Shown here piece after piece: positions 187 through 20,873 of a stretch of DNA of 32,000 bases; position 1 is the first letter of the stretch, and each line of letters begins with the position of its first letter. Location of the stretch: the NCBI RefSeq assembly GCF_001462395.1, contig NZ_LNTB01000001.1:1080001-1112000 (forward strand), in the 5' to 3' direction. The position numbers and the translations under genes were made by a program. The notes beneath the pieces were generated by a model. It worked only from the letters and a program-made list of their open reading frames with translations, was not told where the DNA came from and ran no database searches. Source of the DNA: Pyrodictium occultum (GTDB taxonomy: Archaea > Thermoproteota > Thermoprotei_A > Sulfolobales > Pyrodictiaceae).

Positions 187-234
187 CCGGCCCTCCTCTC
201 GACGAGGCTCCGCACCGCCTCGGGAGAGCACTAG

Positions 235-780
235 AATTCCTTGAGGACTTGAGGAGAGCCATAGGGTTCTACTACACTGTTTACAGGGTTATGCTTGAAT
301 CAGGTGCTAGGTATACCCATGTCCTAAGAATGATCAAGGAATGGAATCCTAGTGAGATTATTGAGATACCTGGTGTAGACATAGTATACCAGAGACTAGT
401 ATGCTTTGGGGACAGGGGTTTCTGTAGATATTGTAGATACTACATGGGGGTACGTGGATCAACTAAGCAGTGTAAGCGGATATACTTCTCCCATAAGACC
501 CTGGAATTATTAGAGCAGATTACTCCTAGGAGTATAAGCAGGCATCAGCCTAGAAAATATGCTGAGAAACACGGCTTAATCCTACCAAAGTTATATGAGG
601 AAGATTGCTTGGAGACTAATGACCAAGGCTATGAACAGGGAGGTAGCAAAATTCATACAATCAAGGTTCGGGGAGCTAAGGGTAAGCGAGGCAAGATACG
701 AAGACCTACTAGAAGAAGCAGATCAAGCATACCCAGAATACCTAAAGCATCTGGTTAAAATAGGTCTTACCGACTACTAA
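235..780 (+). pseudogene. Tyrosine recombinase (archaeal SSV/pNOB8-like integrase), catalytic-domain fragment, N-terminally truncated and frameshifted
   Basis: Two overlapping ORFs (144..758 and 595..780) together read ...VMLESGARYTHVLRM... (box I Arg) ...HGLILPKLY / MRKIAWRLMTKAMNREVAKFIQSRFGELRVSEARYEDLL (RK...FIQxR...A-R-Y catalytic Tyr region). Joining them needs a 1-nt frame correction at ~590-597. The part of ORF 144..758 upstream of ~235 is GC-rich host sequence overlapping the preceding gene. Confidence 0.6.
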
Positions 781-788
781 TGTGAGTA

Positions 789-807
789 AATAAAGAAATG
801 AAAGAAT
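789..807 (-). terminator. T-rich tract downstream of the 554-aa gene (possible archaeal oligo-T terminator)
   Basis: The minus strand reads TTCTTTCATTTCTTTATTT about 60 nt after the stop at 866. Confidence 0.25.
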
Positions 808-865
808 TGGTCTTACATCACTCCCTCATTCCTATAACCTGTCACGATGAAGTCACCAGGTCTTC

Positions 866-2530
866 TTAACTGTTGATTAAGTTTTCCAGAAGCTCAGTGA
901 TTGGTATAATTTTTCTTGAACCAAAATCTACTCCGAAAAACTCTATCTTATCCCCATATCTCTTCCTGTAGATGTTTCTGAGAGCAAGTATATCCTTAAA
1001 ATATATCATTAACTGGGGGTTTGGTATTATTATCCATAACTTCAAGCCTTTCTTAAGCCTTGATTCTATTCTTCTCCTAAGCTTTAGCATTGGAAGACCT
1101 GTTCCATATAGGGTCTCTATTTCTACTGCTAATTCGCCTAATTCTGAATCTCTTACGTATACATCTAATCTCCCATCAACAAATTCATATTCGGTTCTTA
1201 TATTTTCTTCCCTAACTCCTATCCTCTTAAGATATTCAACAACAAAAGCTTTTAGTGCATAATGGAGGATAGATTCACCACCAATGTTTTCCTCATCCTC
1301 ACTGCTAGGTTCTACGGAAACTATTGTGGTTATTTTGCTTGCAAGTCTTTCTATTTCATCAAAGTACAAATCTTCTAATCTTACAACAGTCGCATCCAAA
1401 TTGAATAATACTGGAGTCTCCTTTCTTACTATACCCCACATGACTTGAGCAAGTTTAAAAACAATATCATCCTCTTTTATATTAACCTCATAGTATTTTG
1501 GAAATGGTGAATCGATCTTAAGAATCTCCTTAACCTTACTAAGCTTCTCCTCACTACCATAAAATACTAGGAAACCAAGGTTTTGAGAATAAAGTTCCTT
1601 AAGCCTATCCTTAAGATATCTTGTCTCAACATCTACTTTGTCTAAATCTAAGACCCAAACATGTTTATCAGCTCTTATGTCTAGTTTAATTTCATCGAAA
1701 TCTATAGCTTCCATGTGTGCTGGTCTTGGCAACCCTTTGCCATGTATTCTATAAATTTCTCTTAGAATTCTCTTTAATAACTCTACGTATTCGAATTTCT
1801 TGTTTTTAGGCTTTCTTGCAAGAATTATTGCTGGCCTATTAATGTTTAGCTTAAATCCCGACCCAAATATAGTTTGTATCGGATCAAGGAATTCTAATTT
1901 CTCCACTTCATCAGAAGGAATAGTAAGACCAGCTGATACCGCAGTCTTTTCAAATAATAAGTCCTTTAGATATCTTTTCACAGTAATTGTATCGATTCTA
2001 CGGAAAATTATTCTAGGGACAAAGATTAGGTCATGAATTTTATCTGATAATGTTTCTAGTTTTCTGGTAAATATAGTAATAGTCTTAGCTACTTTGCAAT
2101 CAGTAACGCTTTTAAACTCTACTTCTGGTATGTTATTAAGAAGATGTCTCATGATTTCATGTATCTGCGTCACCGGTATTATTGGATTCTCTTTATAAGG
2201 TTTTATTGTGATATCTGATTTCTTTTGAAATTCTAGTTTGGGGACACCAACAGTCCTTATTACAATGGACTTAGACTCTAAATGAATTCTTTTATCGCTA
2301 ATTTTCTCAGTAATCTTCTTAGCAACGTGGAAGTAGGGTACTAATAAAGGCACTTTAACTCTCTTAACTTTTTTGATTACCTCTTCTTCTAAACCATGTT
2401 CTGCAGCAATTTCTAGAGGAGGTATTATGACTTCTATTGTAAATTCAGATTCTCTTTCTTTCCTCTGCCCCCTTTTCTTTTCTTTAACTTCTAATCTACT
2501 CACTACAACCACCCTGTTATGCAGAGCCAA
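866..2530 (-). CDS. Hypothetical 554-aa protein with a C-terminal PD-(D/E)xK (restriction-endonuclease-like) signature; island cargo gene B
   Basis: A 1.66-kb ORF in ~1/3 G+C DNA is very unlikely by chance. The C-terminus reads GGESILHYALKAFVVEYLKRIG...EYEFVDGRLDVYVRDSELGELAVEIETLYG, matching a helix / D / E-x-E pattern. No Walker A GxxxxGK[ST] was seen. The listed start 2530 is TTG. GTG at 2503-2501 overlaps the upstream stop (TAGTG) and is an alternative start. Confidence 0.7.
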   Translation of the reverse strand: MALHNRVVVVSRLEVKEKKRGQRKERESEFTIEVIIPPLEIAAEHGLEEEVIKKVKRVKVPLLVPYFHVAKKITEKISDKRIHLESKSIVIRTVGVPKLEFQKKSDITIKPYKENPIIPVTQIHEIMRHLLNNIPEVEFKSVTDCKVAKTITIFTRKLETLSDKIHDLIFVPRIIFRRIDTITVKRYLKDLLFEKTAVSAGLTIPSDEVEKLEFLDPIQTIFGSGFKLNINRPAIILARKPKNKKFEYVELLKRILREIYRIHGKGLPRPAHMEAIDFDEIKLDIRADKHVWVLDLDKVDVETRYLKDRLKELYSQNLGFLVFYGSEEKLSKVKEILKIDSPFPKYYEVNIKEDDIVFKLAQVMWGIVRKETPVLFNLDATVVRLEDLYFDEIERLASKITTIVSVEPSSEDEENIGGESILHYALKAFVVEYLKRIGVREENIRTEYEFVDGRLDVYVRDSELGELAVEIETLYGTGLPMLKLRRRIESRLKKGLKLWIIIPNPQLMIYFKDILALRNIYRKRYGDKIEFFGVDFGSRKIIPITELLENLINS

Positions 2531-3717
2531 GAAAATCTATTTTTCGTAATTGGCCTAATATAGGCTAAGCCGAGGAGCATTTGAGGAGCAAGAAAAGCTA
2601 TGAACTCCGAATAACTCATTTTGTATTCCTTGTGTTCAAAGTCATGTCCAAATCCTATTCCTACCTCCCCTCCCTTTATAACTCCGTGATAACCATCATG
2701 TTTTCCATATCCTACCGAGTAGCGGAACGTAAGACCCGACCTGGGAGGTAATTGACATCTCCCCTTTTCATCAAGGCTCTCCGTAGAAGAAACAGATTCA
2801 ATTTTTGATATTACATTTGAGAATAGATCTTTTACTATGCTTCCTCTAAGTAAATCTATACAGCTCCTAACGTATTTATAGAATTCGTTTTCAATGTTGA
2901 AAAAGGATGAAACTACGTCCATTGAGAATAAACTGTACACATCTAGTATAACCTCCCTAATTAAGACACCTACGCTACCGTCAGCCCATCCTATAATTTT
3001 CCTTTCCTCCCTGATTTTATTATCAGGAACATCTGGTTCTAGTAAATCTACTAATTGTAGACCATATTTTTTGAGCAAGTTAATAGTGCTTTCCTCGAAT
3101 AGTTTTGGATAAGCTTCTTTAGCATAGAAGTAGGGTATTGAGTAAAGAGAGTTCACGAAGAATGATATAGGGTTATATAGAGGTAGAATAGCTTTTCCAG
3201 CATTGAGTATACTCCTTAAAGCCTCTAGTCCAAAGCTCTCATCCTTTACCTCAATTCTCTTTGGAGCTGGTTTCTCGACAACTCCTCTTAGCATCTTGAA
3301 AATAGCTTGGAGTTTTGAATATAATTCTGATAACCTTAATACAATATTTGTGCTCACTACACTACATGAGATATCTGTGATAGCAGATTCGAGAGTTAAC
3401 CCATCCTTCATCCTCGCTATAATCGTTGATATCGCGTCACGATCTATTCCTATACCAAGAACCTCCCAATAGAATCTAGCAAGTGCGTTATCTACGAAAG
3501 GTTTGTCCTCCTTCCCTTGTAATCCACCGAAAAATACGCTTTTATAGAATGGTTTTTCATTGATTATTGAACTTATGGGCCTACCTTCTAGGTTAGCCTT
3601 AATTTCTTCCCTTAGATTTATAAAGCCTTCAACACTCGCATATAAGTTGGCTAGGTCGTTGTTAAAATAATGTTTCCATGAGTCTTCCTCATAATATTTT
3701 ATCTTCTCGTCGAGCAT
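2503..3717 (-). CDS. Hypothetical 404-aa protein; island cargo gene A (His-rich duplicated motif and hydrophobic C-terminal tail)
   Basis: ATG at 3717 is preceded by GGAGG (3722-3726 on the complement). The 1.2-kb ORF lies in AT-rich DNA and no family was recognised. Near the C-terminus it reads GYGKHDGYHG...GFGHDFEHKEY, followed by FIAFLAPQMLLGLAYI. Its stop overlaps the start region of gene B. Confidence 0.7.
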   Translation of the reverse strand: MLDEKIKYYEEDSWKHYFNNDLANLYASVEGFINLREEIKANLEGRPISSIINEKPFYKSVFFGGLQGKEDKPFVDNALARFYWEVLGIGIDRDAISTIIARMKDGLTLESAITDISCSVVSTNIVLRLSELYSKLQAIFKMLRGVVEKPAPKRIEVKDESFGLEALRSILNAGKAILPLYNPISFFVNSLYSIPYFYAKEAYPKLFEESTINLLKKYGLQLVDLLEPDVPDNKIREERKIIGWADGSVGVLIREVILDVYSLFSMDVVSSFFNIENEFYKYVRSCIDLLRGSIVKDLFSNVISKIESVSSTESLDEKGRCQLPPRSGLTFRYSVGYGKHDGYHGVIKGGEVGIGFGHDFEHKEYKMSYSEFIAFLAPQMLLGLAYIRPITKNRFSWLCITGWL

Positions 3718-3718
3718 G

Positions 3719-3760
3719 ACTCCTCCCTTCTAAATAGACGACATTAATCTATAAAAAAGC
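3719..3760 (-). promoter_or_regulatory. Putative promoter and RBS of the A-B operon
   Basis: The minus strand reads GCTTTTTTATAGATTAATGTCGTCTATTTAGAAGGGAGGAGTC-ATG. The TATA-like TTTTTTATAG lies ~37 nt upstream of the ATG and GGAGG lies 4 nt upstream of it. Confidence 0.4.
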
Positions 3761-4031
3761 TTAATGAAGTAGAGAGGCTTTTCTTTACCTATTAACTCTT
3801 AAGCTTAGCTTATTTCAACCTCTACTAGATTACTAGCTGATGCCAAATATTTTAGTTTTAAGAACTAAGATATGGTGTGGTATCCGGCTTTGGAATCTGA
3901 GAGTACGTGTTGTTTTAGATCCTTTTGATAAAACAAGGTGTTATAGGAGGGAGAAGGGCTTAGAGGTAGGTTTTGAGGTATGTCTTCTATGCCAATTACA
4001 TTGGATAAGAGGCCTGCTCTACAGGCTGATA

Positions 4032-4371
4032 ATGGATTTTGAAGCATACGCGAAAATATCGATAGATACTAGTAGAAAAGGTTTTAAGGAGAAGACTTAG
4101 CCCTGAAGAAAGAGAGCTAGTAATAAAGCTTGTAGGTGAGGGAAGAACAATAAGGGAAATAATAAAAGAACTTAAGGAAGTAAGGAAGCTCGGCCAGCAG
4201 CCGGGCCTTCTCGGCGGGCCGCGAATAGGCAAGACAGTCCCACGTTATGCGGGCAGTAGTACTAATAAGGCGACAATAATACAGCGTATACGCACAGCCC
4301 TCGAAAGCACACCACATACAATAGGCAGGTGGAGCTCATGTGCTTCGAGTATGAGTACGAGTACGACCTAA
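4032..4371 (+). pseudogene. Broken helix-turn-helix gene (transposase/resolvase-type N-terminal HTH); its 3' part is chimeric with GC-rich host DNA
   Basis: The frame opening at 4066 reads ...RRRLSPEERELVIKLVGEGRTIREIIKELKEVRKL... but has no start codon. An ATG at 4032 (MDFEAYAKISIDTSRKGFKEKT*) is one frame off, so a shift is needed near 4078-4090. G+C jumps at ~4195 inside the ORF, which then runs to TAA at 4369-4371. Confidence 0.4.
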
Positions 4372-4502
4372 TACTAGAGGAGCTGAAGAAAAAGCAGGAG
4401 AACAAGAGTCGGAAGAAGATAGCTGAGGAGAGGAGGGAGCCCCAGGTAGAGCAGCCTAGAGAGATGGTGGAGATCACGCAAGCCGTAGCCTGCGCCAACT
4501 AA
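4338..4502 (+). CDS. Possible small charged protein (54 aa)
   Basis: ATG 4338 to TAA 4500-4502 reads MCFEYEYEYDLILEELKKKQENKSRKKIAEERREPQVEQPREMVEITQAVACAN. It is too short for the ORF track and has no recognised family. Confidence 0.2.
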   Translation: MCFEYEYEYDLILEELKKKQENKSRKKIAEERREPQVEQPREMVEITQAVACAN

Positions 4503-4749
4503 CCCCCCGGCCACCGGGAGCCTCTCAAGTCGCATAGCCCGTCTCTGCTCCCACCTTTTCCCCGCCTCGCCATTTATCAGCTGCCCGGGCTTCTACGCCG
4601 TTCGCCAGAGCCTGGATGCCCTGCCGAAGACGCTGGAGGCTAAGCCTCCACCTTCCCATAAGGCCAAGGTGAGGCCAAGGATTGTCAGTAACCGTGAGCC
4701 TCGTTGCCCTATCTCGCTGCCCCGGACCCCGCGCAGTAACAGCATCTCC

Positions 4750-4780
4750 AAAAGCCGTCATGGAGACGCCCCTAGGGGTC
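4750..4780 (-). terminator. Possible terminator after tRNA-Arg (palindrome plus T4)
   Basis: The minus strand downstream of the tRNA 3' end reads ...GACCCCTAGGGGCGTCTCCATGACGGCTTTTGG. It contains a 10-bp palindrome (CCCCTAGGGG) followed by TTTT. Confidence 0.25.
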
Positions 4781-4789
4781 TGCGTGTGG

Positions 4790-4867
4790 TGGCGGGCCCG
4801 CGGGGACTTGAACCCCGGACTACCGGCTCCGAAGGCCGGCGCCCTATCCTGGCTAGGCTACGGGCCC
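4790..4867 (-). tRNA. tRNA-Arg (anticodon TCG), no intron, CCA encoded
   Basis: The reverse complement folds by hand as a cloverleaf: GGGCCCG TA GCCT AGCCAGGATA GGGC G CCGGC CTTCGGA GCCGG TAGTC CGGGG TTCAAGT CCCCG CGGGCCC G CCA. The acceptor has 7 bp, the anticodon stem CCGGC/GCCGG, the 7-nt anticodon loop CU-UCG-GA, and the T-loop is TTCAAGT. Confidence 0.9.
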
Positions 4868-4890: not shown

Positions 4891-6900
4891 TTACATCCTC
4901 TCTACTGCCTTTATGCCTAGCAGGTCTAGGGCGTTGGCCAGTATCTGTTTCACCGTGTATACCAGGGCTAGCTTGAACACCCTCTTGCCGGGATCAGGCT
5001 CGTTTACCGCGCTGTCGCCACTGGTATACCACTTGTTGAACGTGTCTGCCAGCCTGTTTAGGTAGGCTACTATGAGCTCTGGACGCTGCTCGTCAGCGGC
5101 CTTGGCGAATATGTAGGGGTAGATTAGCGCCTGCAGCACGAGGCTGCGGCGTAGCTGGTTCTCCTCTGCGGCTGTGTAGTCTATGCTGTCCCAGTCTAGG
5201 CTTATTCCGCGCTCTCTCGCCTTCGCCAGTATGCTTGACGCACGGGCGTGTGTGTAGAGGACGTAGGGGGCGCTGTTCCTCTCGAAGTTGAGGGCCTCCT
5301 CTATGCTGAAGGTCATGGGCTTAGAGGCTGACACTGAGACGAGGGTGTAGCGCACCGCTGCCGTACCAACCGCCTCTGCTATCCTCTTCTTCTCGTCCTC
5401 GGGGAGGTCTGGGCTTCTCTTCTCCACCTCTCTCCGCGCCATCTCGACGGCCTGGTCTAGCAGCTCGTCAAGGGTTATGTAGCGGCCCCGGCGGCCGCTC
5501 ATCTTCTGCCCCGGGAGATTCACCATCTCGTACGCGTAGTGGATCATGTTTAGGCCTTCGCGGCGGTAGCCTAGGGCTATGAGTGCCAGCCTCACCTGTA
5601 GCTGTTCGAGCCTCTGCTCAGCCGCTATCACGTTGAATACCTTGCCCGCGTTGAACTCCCTGAACTTCTTTATGCTGTATGCTATGTCCCTCGTGGTGTA
5701 GAGTGTGGTGCCGTCACTCCTCTGGAGGATTAGCGGGGGCACCTCGTAGCTCTCGGGTACGCCCAGGTGCTTGCGCACCACTGGGTCCTTTAGGAGGGGC
5801 TGGAGGTCGAGTGCGAGGGCTCCCTTGTGCACTGTGGCGTAGGGGCTGCGGCGGGCCTGCTCGAGTATCTTGGAGACCATGCTTGTCCAGGCCAGCTCGC
5901 TCTCCCAGTCCCACTTGTCTATGACTATGCCGAGCCTTCCGAGTGTCTCCCGGAACCCCTGGAGGCAGAGATTCACTACTCGGCGGATCTTCTCTACCTT
6001 CTCGGGGCCTCGGCGGTACTCGTAGTCCTGCATTAGCCTCGATATCTCCTCCTCGGGGTTCCTGCCCTGTAGGGCCTTGGCTATCCTCTCAAATAGGGCT
6101 GGGTCCCGCTCCCTCAGCCTCGAGGCGTCTGCAACCAGCTCGTCGAGCTCGCGGAGGAGCTGGCGGTACTCCTCGTACCTCTCCTCCTTTCTGAGCCGCT
6201 CTAACCTCTTCTTCAGCTCCTCTATATCCGCGAGCGTATGCGTTATGGCGTAGACGAGGCCTATCCAGTGGTCTGGCTTAACCCCCTCGGGCGGCTCGCC
6301 GAGGCCTGCGGCGATGTAGCCGTAGGCCAGCACCGCCACCTGGCGGCCCATGTCGTTTATGTAGAAGCGCGTCTGCACCACGTGGCCGCGGGCGCGGAGG
6401 AGCCTGGCCAGGGTGTCCCCGAGGCTAGCGTTCCTCGCGTGGCCTATGTGGAGGGGGTGTACAGGGTTGGCGCTTGTATGCTCCACCACTATCCTCATGG
6501 GTTTATCCGTCTTGACGCGGCCGTACCCGAAGCCCTCCCGCCTAGCCGCGTCGAAGACCAGGCGGGCGGCCTCCACCGCGTTCAGGGTGATGTTCAGGTA
6601 GGCCCCGGCACGCTTGGCTTCGGACACAATCGGCTCCTCGGCGAGTATGCTTGAGGCGTCCTCAAAGAGCCTAGATATGTCGGCGCGGTAGCGTCTTGCA
6701 TACCTAGCCAGCGGGATCCCGTAGTCCCCTAGCTCGGGGTTGGGCGACTCTGCCACGGTGTACTCTATCTGCCTCCTCTCCTCCTCGGAGAGGCTGGCAC
6801 CCTGCCTTTCCAGCGCCTCAGCCACGGCACGGGCTAGAAGCCTCTGGGGAGCGGCCTCGTACACCCTCCTCGAGGGCTGGTCGGGCAAAACACCCCGCAC
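4891..6900 (-). CDS. argS: Arginyl-tRNA synthetase
   Basis: 669 aa with the class I HIGH motif (PLHIGHARNASLGD), an MSGRRG KMSKS-equivalent, and overall ArgRS-like N-terminal and anticodon-binding layout. GTG start. Confidence 0.9.
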   Translation of the reverse strand: MRGVLPDQPSRRVYEAAPQRLLARAVAEALERQGASLSEEERRQIEYTVAESPNPELGDYGIPLARYARRYRADISRLFEDASSILAEEPIVSEAKRAGAYLNITLNAVEAARLVFDAARREGFGYGRVKTDKPMRIVVEHTSANPVHPLHIGHARNASLGDTLARLLRARGHVVQTRFYINDMGRQVAVLAYGYIAAGLGEPPEGVKPDHWIGLVYAITHTLADIEELKKRLERLRKEERYEEYRQLLRELDELVADASRLRERDPALFERIAKALQGRNPEEEISRLMQDYEYRRGPEKVEKIRRVVNLCLQGFRETLGRLGIVIDKWDWESELAWTSMVSKILEQARRSPYATVHKGALALDLQPLLKDPVVRKHLGVPESYEVPPLILQRSDGTTLYTTRDIAYSIKKFREFNAGKVFNVIAAEQRLEQLQVRLALIALGYRREGLNMIHYAYEMVNLPGQKMSGRRGRYITLDELLDQAVEMARREVEKRSPDLPEDEKKRIAEAVGTAAVRYTLVSVSASKPMTFSIEEALNFERNSAPYVLYTHARASSILAKARERGISLDWDSIDYTAAEENQLRRSLVLQALIYPYIFAKAADEQRPELIVAYLNRLADTFNKWYTSGDSAVNEPDPGKRVFKLALVYTVKQILANALDLLGIKAVERM

Positions 6901-18122: not shown

Positions 18123-20873
18123 GTGATAGTGGAGCGTGTCGAGCTGGAGAACGTGCTGAGCCACAGAAGGACGAGAATAGACTTCGGCCGCGGCATTATA
18201 GCAATAGTGGGGCCCAACGGCGCCGGCAAGAGCAGCATAATAGACGCTATAACATACGCCATGTTCGGCTCACATAGCCGCGGCACACGCAGCCGTAAAC
18301 ACGACCTGATAAGGCTCGGCGCCCATATAGCCCGTATAGCTGTAGAGTTCAGCTCCGGAGGCAACCGGTATAGGCTCCAGAAGGTGGTACAGCGCACCGG
18401 CGCTACGCAAGCGCTCCTCTACCAGCTCGATGACGGCTCCCCAAAGCTAATCGCCCGCGGAGTGGAGAGCGTGAAGGCAGAGCTGCGGAGGATACTCGGC
18501 ATAGACCCCTCGCTCGCAGACCTCCTCCTCGTGACCAGGCAGGGCGAGATAGACAGGATACTAGTGGATAAGGAGAAGCGCATAGATACAATAAACACTA
18601 TACTCAGGCTAAAAGCCATCGAGAAGACCTATGACCGCCTAGCCTCCATACTACGGCTCCTCCGGACGAAGAAGACAATGCTCGAGGAGCAGTACCGGAG
18701 CGAGGAGGCCAGGCTGAGAGAGGCGGAGGAGAGCGCCAAAGAATACGACAAGGTGGCCAAGAAGCTGGAGGAGCTGCGGCCGCTCCTAGCAGCTACGGAG
18801 AAGGAGTATGAGGAGCTGAGGGAGAAGGTAGAGGAGCTGCGGGCCCGCACGCAGCGGCTGGAGGCCCTGAAAGCCAGGATGGCTGAGCTGGAACGCAGCC
18901 TCCAGAAGCTCCGCGAGGAGTACGATGAGGCTCGCTCCGAGTACACGCGGGCCAAGAACGCTAAGGAGGAGTTGGAGAGCCTCCGGTGGATTGAGAAGAG
19001 CATAGAGCTTATAGAGGAGGCGTCGAGGATCCTGGAGGAGCTTGATAAGAATAGGGAGGTACTGGAGGCACTACGCCACAATAGAGAGAAGATCGAGAAG
19101 GAGCTGGAGGGGCTGCCGGAGGCTAGGCAAGCCTGGGAGGAGTATGAGAGGCTCAGGAGACAGGTGGAGAAGCTGGAGGAGGATAACAAGCGCTACCACG
19201 AGGTTAGAACCCGGATTGAGCAGCTTGAGGCTAGGGCTAAGAGGCTGAGAAAAGAAGTTGATACCAAGATGAGGAGGCTTATGGACAGGCTTAGGTCAGA
19301 CATACCCCTGGAGCTCCCCAAGGAGCCCGCTAAGATAGTGGAGAAGCTCGAGTCTATAATAGCAAGCCTCGACAAGGCCGTGGAGTCTACAAGGCTTAAG
19401 CTCGAGAGGCTGAAAGAGGAGGCTGGAGCTAAGAGCTCCGAGATACGCGACTTAGAGGAGAAGCTGATGAAGCTTACGGAGGCCCAGGGCCGCTGCCCGC
19501 TATGCGGCAGACCCCTCACCGAGGAGCATAGGATACAGCTGATATCGAGGCTTAGGCAGCAGAAGAGGAGGCTAGAGGCAGAGCTTAGGAGGATCGAGTC
19601 GCAGGCCGTGATGCTGCGCCGCGAGTACAGCGAGCTGGAGTACAAGAAGAAGCTGCTGGAGAGGCTTGCCAGGACGGTGCAGGGGGAGGCAAAGAGCATT
19701 GAGACCATGATAAAGGAGGCCGAGGAGGCGGAGAAGCAGATAGAAGAGCTGCAGAGAAAGTACCTGGAGTTATTCGCGAAGCGCCAGGAGTACGAGGAGG
19801 CCCGCCACCGGCTCCGGGAGCTGGAGCCGCTGGTAAGTAGGTACCAGAGGCTTCAGGCGCTAGCCGAGCAGTACGAGGAGCTGAAACGGCAGGAGGAGGA
19901 GATAGTGTCAAGGCTTGCCGAGCATGAGAGGAGGCTGGCGGAGATTCTAGACGAGCTGAATATGAGTATGGACGAATTGAGGGAGGCGGCAGAGAGGGTT
20001 AGCCACTACCGCGAGTACCTCGCCGGGCTAAAGAGTGAGGCTGAGAGGCTCCCCAAGGCGGAGGCCAGGCTGAAGAGGCTTGAAGCAGAGATCTCAAGGC
20101 TCGAGGCCGAGCTGGAGAAGACCAGAAAGGAGGTAGAGGAGGCTTCTAGTGTTGAGGCCGAGCTTCAAGAGGCTGAGACAAGGCTGCGCGAGCTTGAGGA
20201 GAGGCTTAAGGACCTGAGGAGCCAGGTGGCTAGGCTGGAAGGTGCAAAAGAAAAGCTCGAGGCTATAGTGTCGAAGATCGAGGTGCTACGCGGCAGGGTT
20301 GAAAGGCTGCAGGAGGAGCTGCAGCGCTACGGCAACGCCATAGCTGCTCTAGAGAAGATAAGACGCGCACTGAGCCCTAACGGCGTGCCACGCGCTATAA
20401 GGCACGCCTTGAAGAATATACTAGAGTACCATCTACGCGACACGCTCATGAGGTTCAACATAGACTTCCTCGATGTAAGGCTCGAGGACGACTACAGCGT
20501 AGTCCTTGTAACACGCGAGGGCGAGAAGACGGTGTCTATGCTAAGCGGTGGCGAGAGGATAGCGCTGGCTATAGCTTACAGGATTGCGCTCGCCCGCGTG
20601 GTGGGCGAGAAAATAGAGTCGATGATAATGGATGAGCCTACTATCCACCTCGACGAGGAGAAGAGGCGCGAGCTCGTAGACATTATAAGGTATGGGCTGG
20701 AGGCAAGCGGGCTTGCACAGCTCATAGTGGTTACCCACGACAGGGAGGTTGAGGAGGCGGCTGACAAGGTGGTGGAGGTCGTTAAGATCGACGGGGCGAG
20801 CACTGTGAGGATACGGGCGCCCGGGGAGAGCACCGCCCTGGAGGCCGGCCTGGCAGCTAGCCCTGCTGGATGA
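18123..20873 (+). CDS. rad50: DNA repair ATPase Rad50
   Basis: Walker A GPNGAGKSS, long E/K/R/L coiled coils, zinc hook CPLC at 19494-19505, signature LSGGE, and Walker B MIMDEP. GTG start 4 nt after the mre11 stop. Confidence 0.95.
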   Translation: MIVERVELENVLSHRRTRIDFGRGIIAIVGPNGAGKSSIIDAITYAMFGSHSRGTRSRKHDLIRLGAHIARIAVEFSSGGNRYRLQKVVQRTGATQALLYQLDDGSPKLIARGVESVKAELRRILGIDPSLADLLLVTRQGEIDRILVDKEKRIDTINTILRLKAIEKTYDRLASILRLLRTKKTMLEEQYRSEEARLREAEESAKEYDKVAKKLEELRPLLAATEKEYEELREKVEELRARTQRLEALKARMAELERSLQKLREEYDEARSEYTRAKNAKEELESLRWIEKSIELIEEASRILEELDKNREVLEALRHNREKIEKELEGLPEARQAWEEYERLRRQVEKLEEDNKRYHEVRTRIEQLEARAKRLRKEVDTKMRRLMDRLRSDIPLELPKEPAKIVEKLESIIASLDKAVESTRLKLERLKEEAGAKSSEIRDLEEKLMKLTEAQGRCPLCGRPLTEEHRIQLISRLRQQKRRLEAELRRIESQAVMLRREYSELEYKKKLLERLARTVQGEAKSIETMIKEAEEAEKQIEELQRKYLELFAKRQEYEEARHRLRELEPLVSRYQRLQALAEQYEELKRQEEEIVSRLAEHERRLAEILDELNMSMDELREAAERVSHYREYLAGLKSEAERLPKAEARLKRLEAEISRLEAELEKTRKEVEEASSVEAELQEAETRLRELEERLKDLRSQVARLEGAKEKLEAIVSKIEVLRGRVERLQEELQRYGNAIAALEKIRRALSPNGVPRAIRHALKNILEYHLRDTLMRFNIDFLDVRLEDDYSVVLVTREGEKTVSMLSGGERIALAIAYRIALARVVGEKIESMIMDEPTIHLDEEKRRELVDIIRYGLEASGLAQLIVVTHDREVEEAADKVVEVVKIDGASTVRIRAPGESTALEAGLAASPAG

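Follow-up and report, generated by a model that had tools for sequence, protein, structure and literature searches.

The window analysed here is a stretch of 32,000 nt from the Pyrodictium occultum chromosome (NZ_LNTB01000001.1), to which all coordinates without a locus prefix refer. Towards its left end it contains two adjacent minus-strand genes, A and B, which form a unit of ~2.9 kb and whose relatives were collected as a series of loci designated by L-numbers. A encodes a mainly helical protein, and B a larger protein that likely ends in a nuclease fold of the PD-(D/E)xK type; the two genes stand side by side in nearly all loci that could be scored. The best single explanation, to which we assign a probability of roughly 0.45 on comparative sequence evidence, is that the pair constitutes a nuclease-based archaeal defence module, self-contained, spreading horizontally among hyperthermophiles and serving innate immunity against viruses or plasmids. 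The coordinates of the pair, of the domains of B and of the surrounding features are collected in Table 1.

An earlier reading of the locus, made from the letters of the window and referred to below as the first-pass annotation, had listed two open reading frames (ORFs) of 404 and 554 codons, and both are present where it placed them. It had argued that such frames are improbable by chance in DNA of about one-third G+C. This agrees with the composition profile (33–37% G+C for the A–B region versus ~60% for the remaining window), with the chance of 404 and of 545 open codons at the local base composition (2e-15 and 1.5e-20, respectively), and with 300 shuffles, in which the longest open frame measured 159 codons. 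The stop codon of A shares its G with a GTG (2503–2501) that is in frame with B, and the TTG at 2530 sits 28 nt within A; both were read in the sequence as the first-pass annotation had described them. In L018 and L021, which are the closest relatives, the start of B is called at the equivalent GTG (GTGAACAGATTA versus GTGAGTAGATTA in the window, nearly identical bases), and B is therefore most likely 545 residues long and begins at 2503; residue numbers of B in this text follow the 554-residue form. The A–B overlap amounts to translational coupling, and overlaps between stop and start codons, by 1, 4 or more nt, recur in L001, L002, L018, L019, L021 and L022.

Upstream of A, a single TATA-like box, which is a putative promoter, and a GGAGG Shine-Dalgarno-like motif are found as originally described, and GGGAG is the sole upstream stretch kept among the window, L018 and L021. 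Alignments show that A and B are both full length relative to their homologues. The ratio of nonsynonymous to synonymous substitution rates (dN/dS), measured against L018, L021 and L003 (60–81% protein identity), is 0.07–0.13 for A and 0.10–0.18 for B, and within B it is 0.17–0.28 in the N-terminal third versus 0.11–0.14 in the core. Both genes are intact and, judged by these ratios, under purifying selection, while the adjacent integrase gene of SSV type (archaeal phage) has decayed. The PF16795 catalytic domain of the latter is not contained in an intact reading frame, which marks it as a pseudogene: the C-terminal catalytic domain alone is present, with one frameshift near 590–600 and with the N-terminal part missing, its 5' end abuts host DNA, and after correction of the frameshift it matches PF16795 with an expectation value (E) of 5.7e-16 over profile positions 15–160 of 161. 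The first-pass annotation had likewise recognised a truncated or frameshifted integrase fragment and had proposed a selected cargo in a decayed vehicle; this proposal stands, with dN/dS values of 0.07–0.18 beside an integrase pseudogene.

Table 1 Features of the A–B locus in the P. occultum window, and accessory genes of related loci (coordinates with locus prefix)
Feature	Coordinates	Strand	Basis or remark
Gene A	2503–3717	-	404 aa; listed ORF
Gene B	866–2530 (longest, TTG start) or 866–2503 (GTG start)	-	554 or 545 aa; stop codon 866–868
TAGTG stop/start overlap	2501–2505	-	G common to TAG of A and GTG of B; read from sequence
GGAGG Shine-Dalgarno-like motif	3722–3726	-	4 nt before ATG of A
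TATA-like box TTTTTTATAG (minus strand CTTTTTTATAG)	3749–3759	-	~33 nt before ATG of A
B residues 1–211, variable K/E-rich N-terminus	1898–2530	-	pLDDT (predicted local distance difference test) 25–35; poorly aligning
B residues ~230–365, alpha/beta AAA+/P-loop-like domain, then helical lid-like segment	1436–1843	-	DSSP and Foldseek
B residues 408–554, PD-(D/E)xK-like nuclease domain	869–1309	-	Fold pattern and invariant residues
Putative catalytic codons of B	D456 1163–1165; E470 1121–1123; E472 1115–1117	-	Checked against sequence
Low-GC island	230–4300		33–46% G+C versus ~60% for the chromosome (composition profiles); right edge gradual, 4100–4500
SSV-type (archaeal phage) integrase pseudogene	228–780	+	PF16795 matches in two frames; three-frame translation
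Frameshifted small-gene fragment	4032–4371	+	HTH_32, HTH_38 and HTH_7 at E 0.02–0.09, two frames; weak helix-turn-helix (HTH) resemblance
tRNA-Arg(TCG)	4790–4867	-	ARAGORN and Rfam; 300–500 bp past right edge of island
Gene C (proteasome-beta/HslV-like)	L007:7171–8007; L024:4862–5668; L028:2699–3505; L010:3207–3893; L044:6644–7441; L046:8304–9119		
HExxH protein gene	L015:9084–9968; homologues in L050–L054, L067 and L084		Invariant LHELCHH

Neither A nor B matches a family in Pfam, NCBIfam, PHROGs or PADLOC-DB 2.0, and profile searches with either protein against the PDB sequences gave no match; no confident match to a virion, replication or housekeeping family was obtained. None of the outcomes that the first-pass annotation had named as refuting its reading was observed. 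The absence of Walker A, helicase, HNH and methyltransferase motifs that had been noted at first is borne out as well: no helicase, HNH or methyltransferase match was found in A or B, and the Walker A motif (GxxxxGK[ST]) occurs neither in 25 B homologues nor in any A homologue.

The AlphaFold2 model of B, built from 22 sequences, leaves residues 1–211 unmodelled and is confident from about residue 230 on. Its C-terminal domain is organised around a core of the order alpha-beta-beta-beta-alpha-beta (pLDDT 85–94), with helices at 421–436 and 480–492 and strands at 444–450, 453–461, 465–471 and 497–501 according to DSSP, and across 22 homologues the residues E419, H423, K427, E447, D456, E470, E472 and K483 are invariant and Q506 nearly so. 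D456 lies on strand 2 and E470-x-E472 at strand 3, forming a D...E-x-E motif in which Glu replaces the canonical Lys; the invariant K427 or K483 might stand in for the latter. Local Foldseek matches were obtained to SfsA (4dap; E 4.7e-3, probability 0.96), I-Bth0305I (3r3p; E 0.06, probability 0.89), Card1 and BstEII, and single members of the B family weakly match the Pfam families NucS_C (E 0.0025) and CoiA_nuc (E 0.031). Taken as a whole, the model and the conserved residues suggest that the C-terminus of B likely adopts a PD-(D/E)xK nuclease fold with putative activity. The first-pass annotation had proposed such a domain from an H...D...ExE block; the residues stand, with H423, D456, E470 and E472 all invariant, whereas the fold matches remain below threshold.

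The middle domain of B gives weak Foldseek matches to p97, NSF, Mpa, ORC and a clamp loader (E 2e-3 to 5e-2, TM-score ~0.15). The loop equivalent to Walker A reads KPxxxxFEY, and the residues that are invariant in this domain, i.e., K253, R257, E258, R261, E312 and Q316, are located on helix surfaces. An active ATPase was rejected for the absence of Walker A, and the modelled domain is probably a degenerate AAA+-like domain that serves assembly or partner contact rather than ATP hydrolysis.

Protein A is 100% identical to a P. occultum protein annotated as hypothetical. Its AlphaFold2 model (30 homologues; pLDDT 92.9, predicted template modelling score 0.91) consists largely of helices, with a small beta domain at the C-terminus, and when Foldseek was run with this model against the PDB and BFVD, no neighbour emerged (best E 0.6 and 0.12, respectively). 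When 1.84 billion representative proteins were searched with a profile (E ≤ 1e-3), 188 clusters at 50% identity were returned, mostly singletons, which make up a patchy and sparse family; full-length relatives are nearly all stand-alone proteins of 340–480 aa, and the few that carry a name are 'hypothetical' entries from Acidilobus and Methanococci metagenome-assembled genomes (MAGs). The positions conserved in an alignment of 135 members are Gly, Pro and aromatic residues and one Asn (N182), whereas conserved positions with Asp, Glu, His, Lys or Arg are absent across these relatives. The acidic segments EPDLPDE and IEDEF looked catalytic within the close family and are not kept across the 135 relatives, by which A was rejected as an enzyme, and weak recurrent matches to Pfam MUN and Cpf1 REC2 were set aside as helical-bundle noise. 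The Pfam, NCBIfam, PHROGs and PADLOC searches revealed no DNA-binding or known antitoxin domain. Since no residue of catalytic type is conserved, A looks like a non-catalytic binding or scaffolding protein rather than an enzyme, in line with the non-enzymatic appearance first ascribed to it.

Relatives of the pair were gathered by exact-protein look-up, by a scan of GTDB species genomes and by a scan of metagenomes from JGI (Joint Genome Institute). This yielded 97 distinct A genes, and linkage was counted on the 75 that are followed by at least 1 kb of downstream sequence. A co-oriented B comes directly after A in 73 of these 75 loci, including branches in which A is 25–30% identical to that of the window, and A and B are found together in nearly every case. 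The two exceptions are L009, in which A is frameshifted and B is still there, and L017, a Sulfolobales MAG in which a distant A-like gene stands alone. Pairwise identities of A co-vary with those of the B core (Mantel r = 0.93, a value reached by 0 of 5000 permutations). Near-strict linkage and co-varying identities together indicate that the pair is inherited and transferred as a single unit.

Hosts within the Thermoproteota comprise Pyrodictium, Ignisphaera, Caldivirga, Acidilobus and Desulfurococcales, and further hosts are a Nitrososphaeria MAG, Odinarchaeota, Thermococcus indicus, a Methanococci MAG and Alkanophagales; no bacterial member was seen in the homologue searches. P. occultum itself was not returned by the scan of GTDB species representatives, although A of the window fits the search pattern; possible reasons are that the island is missing from the representative assembly or that the stretch was masked. 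In one Desulfurococcales MAG, JALVIT01, the pair apparently occurs three times in divergent form, each copy on a short contig of its own (L009, L011 and L012) and ~40% identical to A of the window, with mis-binning as a possible cause.

Movement of the pair between hosts can be followed in Ca. Alkanophaga volatiphilum (L003:8799–11656, the same as L008), whose proteins are 79% (A) and 60% (B) identical to those of Pyrodictium. Here the pair has 43% G+C in a region of 58% G+C, and the shift falls exactly at the two genes. They are bordered by a Lactamase_B gene on one side and by a gene of the pyruvate:ferredoxin oxidoreductase type on the other, mcr genes are found within a few kb, and no more than 2 bp lie between the stop codon of B and the end of the neighbouring gene. 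When the window, L018, L021 and L003 are compared, nucleotide similarity stops at the stop codon of B and ~20–50 nt upstream of the ATG of A. No inverted repeats, direct repeats or target duplications flank the pairs in five loci searched. Similarity that is limited to the coding ends, together with the lack of flanking repeats, defines the mobile unit as two ORFs with a short leader. A transposon or homing cassette was rejected because no repeats were present in the five loci and no conserved ends in the flanks of the four closest loci. The pair is moved by something else, i.e., by an integrative element in P. occultum and by recombination elsewhere. The Odinarchaeota contig L001 is full of ORFans, carries a faint Cas4-like match and looks like a mobile element.

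The first-pass annotation had raised the possibility of a location in defence islands, and the pair does often lie among immunity genes. In L018 it is accompanied by a UPF0020-type methylase and a HinfI-family endonuclease, i.e., a restriction-modification (R-M) system, and by MazE/PIN; in L021 a PLD-family nuclease is nearby; in L022 the pair is flanked by NurA/HerA and, at its opposite end, by a type III-B Cmr module. L023 combines a DUF1156 methylase, VapBC, HEPN/MNT and two ABC ATPases that match the AriA, GajA, Old and AbiLi models, an AriA/GajA-like ATPase lies immediately upstream of the pair in L026, and a 1404-aa STAND NTPase is a neighbour in L091. Two further loci have longer arrays upstream of the pair: a SNF2 helicase, a DNA methylase and a DUF499 protein directly precede a distant pair in L109 (1282–9811), and a DUF1156 methylase, PDDEXK_1, a helicase-like protein, an N6/N4 methylase and a 152-aa unassigned protein do so in L098 (2527–9943). 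These upstream genes resemble multi-gene restriction-like systems, which may or may not cooperate with the pair. From gene content, the association of the pair with defence genes is suggestive, not statistical.

A different kind of neighbour was noted in one branch (L063, L069, L070, L072, L081, L093 and L095), where a gene matching PF03013, a pyrimidine-dimer glycosylase of the T4 endonuclease V type, is placed by clustering downstream of the pair, at a distance of a few kb and in opposite orientation. PF03013 matched 5 of 144 scanned neighbours, and its recurrence is probably shared synteny of related genomes.

The locus had at first been taken for a two-gene system. This needs to be amended, since some related loci add a proteasome-like, an HExxH or an ATPase protein. 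Protein C (~270 aa, proteasome-beta/HslV-like) is linked to the pair in 11 loci of several distant lineages; its gene precedes A in T. indicus, L024, L028 and L046 and follows B in L010, L036 and L044, remnants are present in L022 and L026, and it is absent from the P. occultum window and from many loci. C matches the PF00227 proteasome-subunit profile at or near the threshold (E 7.7e-5; 22.9 bits versus a cut-off of 22.4), and its sequence contains an N-terminal Met-Thr-Leu-Val, an aspartate in ADSR and a lysine in KK(I/V). By inspection, we take this Thr, Asp and Lys to be the counterparts of Thr1, Asp17 and Lys33 of proteasome beta/HslV. Loci of the Caldivirga branch have a gene for a 294-aa protein that overlaps the start of the A-like gene by 4 nt; the LHELCHH motif (HExxH, zincin-like) of this protein is invariant, and it has no Pfam or PDB match. 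In one population a 270-aa P-loop ATPase follows directly after B; neither of these genes is present in the P. occultum window.

A universal third gene was considered and rejected, as the genes upstream of A in the Thermococcus, Caldivirga, Pyrodictiaceae and Sulfolobales loci are mutually non-homologous. The accessory genes are branch-specific around a conserved A–B core, and a conserved core with branch-specific accessories is a common pattern among defence systems. That a proteasome-like protein and an HExxH protein occur in separate branches hints at proteolytic control, although gating of the A–B system by proteolysis is speculation. In the degraded locus L026:4831–9628 (the same as L027), a C-terminal remnant of the proteasome-like gene and a 217-aa ORF are left, the gene of the AriA/GajA-like ABC ATPase is in the place of A, a 24-aa trace of A persists, and B is split into 229 and 332 aa.

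If the pair is a nuclease-based defence module, B would be its effector, and the C-terminal PD-(D/E)xK-type domain, acting through D456 and E470-x-E472, would cut nucleic acid, most likely DNA. The AAA+-like middle domain would contribute assembly or partner binding, probably with no ATP hydrolysis, and the fast-evolving N-terminal ~210 residues would probably mediate regulation or contact with the target. A would be the non-catalytic partner that senses a trigger and/or restrains the nuclease, and both proteins would be produced from one transcript and made together through the overlapping stop/start. In those operons that carry a proteasome-type threonine peptidase or the HExxH protein, proteolysis could gate the system. 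In P. occultum, the vehicle of the pair would have been an SSV-type integrative element, now decayed, and selection would have retained the pair. Formation of an A–B complex, the roles of A and of the N-terminus of B, the nuclease activity and the defence phenotype are all elements that we infer.

Several observations weigh against a nuclease-based defence function. The nuclease fold matches are sub-threshold (2e-3 being the best Foldseek E for the whole chain), Glu occupies the position of the canonical Lys, and the B model rests on 22 sequences with its first 211 residues unmodelled; the role of A is purely inferred. The neighbours in L002 and L003 are purely metabolic, toxin-antitoxin and R-M genes are abundant in hyperthermophiles, and the neighbour tally is a descriptive one. 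Many of the metagenomic loci come from closely related or near-identical populations and are not independent. Finally, with no match in PADLOC-DB 2.0, the assignment to defence is one of guilt by association only.

The closest rival, which is not exclusive with defence and partly overlaps with it, as many such modules serve both ends, is an addiction module (toxin-antitoxin-like, or a selfish cassette of restriction-like type) in which B would be a toxic nuclease and A its neutraliser, such that loss of the pair kills the cell and the islands or elements that carry it are stabilised. A putative neutraliser in first position and an overlapping stop/start correspond to the classic antitoxin-toxin layout, and strict linkage with co-divergence, a pair that outlives its decaying vehicle, a bare cassette of atypical GC among unrelated host genes, and a Desulfurococcales MAG with apparently three divergent copies all speak for it. 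However, an A of 404 aa that is more conserved than B is unusual for an antitoxin, A has no detectable DNA-binding or known antitoxin domain, and a B ORF is retained in L004, L009 and L026 (split in the last) though A is broken or lost, which is unexpected if B alone is lethal. Nor is the pair a classical R-M system, as a modification enzyme motif is missing. We regard addiction as a doubtful explanation of the pair.

The two remaining explanations fit the data less well than defence or addiction. One of them, a function in the maintenance, replication, partition or mobility of a mobile element (a small integrative plasmid, or a homing or transposon-like cassette), would account for an element of ~4 kb that has an SSV-type integrase, would need a replication function and carries little besides the pair, and for the mobile-element appearance of L001; the insertion of the cassette alone in L003 could reflect self-mobility, and PD-(D/E)xK domains do act in some transposases and homing endonucleases, among which I-Bth0305I is a Foldseek match of B. 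Yet terminal inverted repeats, target duplications and conserved non-coding ends are missing from the pairs in the loci searched, an integrase is not nearby in most loci, several of which lie among ordinary host genes, and neither protein shows a primase, polymerase, helicase, HUH or Walker motif, nor does A have conserved catalytic residues. Neither profile matched IMG/VR, neither A nor B matched INPHARED and A did not match PLSDB, in all three of which archaeal elements are poorly represented, and no circular contig is among the collected loci; such a function appears improbable to us. A horizontally transferred cellular factor of DNA repair, nucleic-acid processing or protein quality control would suit the restriction of the family to thermophilic archaea, the NurA/HerA genes adjoining the pair in L022, the pyrimidine-dimer glycosylase genes recurring near one branch and the link to a proteasome-like protein, but is very improbable in view of the sparse and patchy distribution, the foreign GC in two hosts, the pseudogenised copies, the several divergent copies in one MAG and the variable, island-like contexts.

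Outside the island of P. occultum, the window is ordinary host sequence. A decayed HTH gene had been proposed on the flank opposite to the integrase; the split of this fragment over two frames stands, and its identity as an HTH gene is weak (E 0.02–0.09). The tRNA-Arg(TCG) gene is a possible integration target of the element. A comparison of the island ends with each other and with the tRNA for att-like repeats gave chance matches of 9–10 nt and no att sites, which leaves the limits of the element and its tie to the tRNA tentative. The ~500 bp between island and tRNA (4300–4790; 52–63% G+C) contain a 57-aa E/K-rich ORF (4329–4502) and no recognisable gene. An arginyl-tRNA synthetase gene (4891–6900, minus strand) adjoins the tRNA at a distance of 23 bp. 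Further to the right, the gene at 18123–20873 encodes Rad50 (916 aa; matches to PDB Rad50 at E 4e-49), an ordinary host gene, and the strong purine skew at 18–20 kb corresponds to its coiled-coil part.

In a more specific form of the defence proposal, the pair would be an immune system peculiar to archaea, to which a proteasome-type peptidase is added in some cases. A, a protein of previously unseen fold, would sense for or regulate the nuclease B, itself composed of a dead AAA+-like and a BamHI-like E-x-E PD-(D/E)xK domain; where the system is fuller, a threonine peptidase of the proteasome family or a zinc peptidase would gate the nuclease. We advance this form tentatively, as a possibility rather than an expectation. 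If true, it would be one of few immune systems born in and confined to archaea, Asgard included. A literature search found no paper that describes A or B and no described proteasome-family peptidase in a conflict system, and we know of no case that links the two. Should the pair act in defence or addiction, it would add a new partner protein and a thermostable nuclease with an unusual active site, and possibly the first tie of proteasome-family peptidases to a conflict system; should it do neither, it would still define two protein families not described before and offer a clear example of a cassette passed from one archaeal phylum to another. The pair is compact, unannotated everywhere and conserved from Thermoproteota to Odinarchaeota, Thermococci and alkane-oxidising Euryarchaeota, which makes it a directly testable candidate. 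A survey of 7747 archaeal genomes states that nearly one-third of them are without a detected system beyond CRISPR-Cas and R-M, and urges a search for archaea-specific systems (PMC12988326).

Among characterised proteins, B comes closest in its C-terminal part to PD-(D/E)xK enzymes of the BamHI, Hjc, NucS and SfsA types, with which it shares the order of the core, an acidic residue (E419) before helix 1, and D456 with E470-x-E472. We take the D...E-x-E arrangement to resemble Asp94, Glu111 and Glu113 of BamHI. In contrast to these nucleases, B has neither the canonical Lys nor a profile match above threshold, its nuclease-like domain shares the chain with a dead AAA+-like domain and a long variable N-terminus, and B is always paired with A. 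Card1 and Can2, effector nucleases of type III CRISPR with CARF or SAVED domains, are similar in that an alpha/beta domain precedes the PD-(D/E)xK domain, and a type III-B Cmr module adjoins one of our loci. Among the Foldseek matches of B, Card1 (6xl1) ranks second, with a weak score (probability 0.63, TM-score 0.16–0.22), and no CARF or SAVED Pfam match was found in 22 B homologues at E ≤ 1. The pair differs from these nucleases in that CRISPR adjacency is limited to one locus and no source of cyclic nucleotides is implied.

With the peptidase-unfoldase pairs HslUV and PAN-20S and with protease-gated immune effectors, the pair has in common the linkage to C and the weak matches of B to AAA+ folds, including proteasomal ATPases. 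The peptidase gene is, however, missing from the P. occultum window and from many loci, and without a Walker A motif B cannot be an unfoldase. Type II toxin-antitoxin and compact R-M systems share with the pair the coupled genes, the mobile unit, the atypical GC and the persistence in decaying elements; A and B are far larger than typical toxin-antitoxin components, and they contain no methyltransferase or known antitoxin domain.

Shedu (SduA) is similar in its C-terminal PD-(D/E)xK effector, its variable N-terminus and its presence in defence islands. It is a single gene with a DUF4263 nuclease domain, whereas B has an obligate partner and no match to the Shedu models at E ≤ 1. The first-pass annotation was mistaken in counting Shedu, a lone nuclease, among systems with ATPase, helicase or transmembrane signatures; its wider statement that the pair fits no named two-gene system holds, as neither A nor B matched any family of PADLOC-DB 2.0.0 at E ≤ 1, a collection that includes Shedu, Gabija, Hachiman, Septu, Lamassu, Kiwa and the PDC and HEC candidates. 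The pair thus falls outside every named system tested and is best filed as a nuclease-effector conflict cassette made up of two undescribed protein families.

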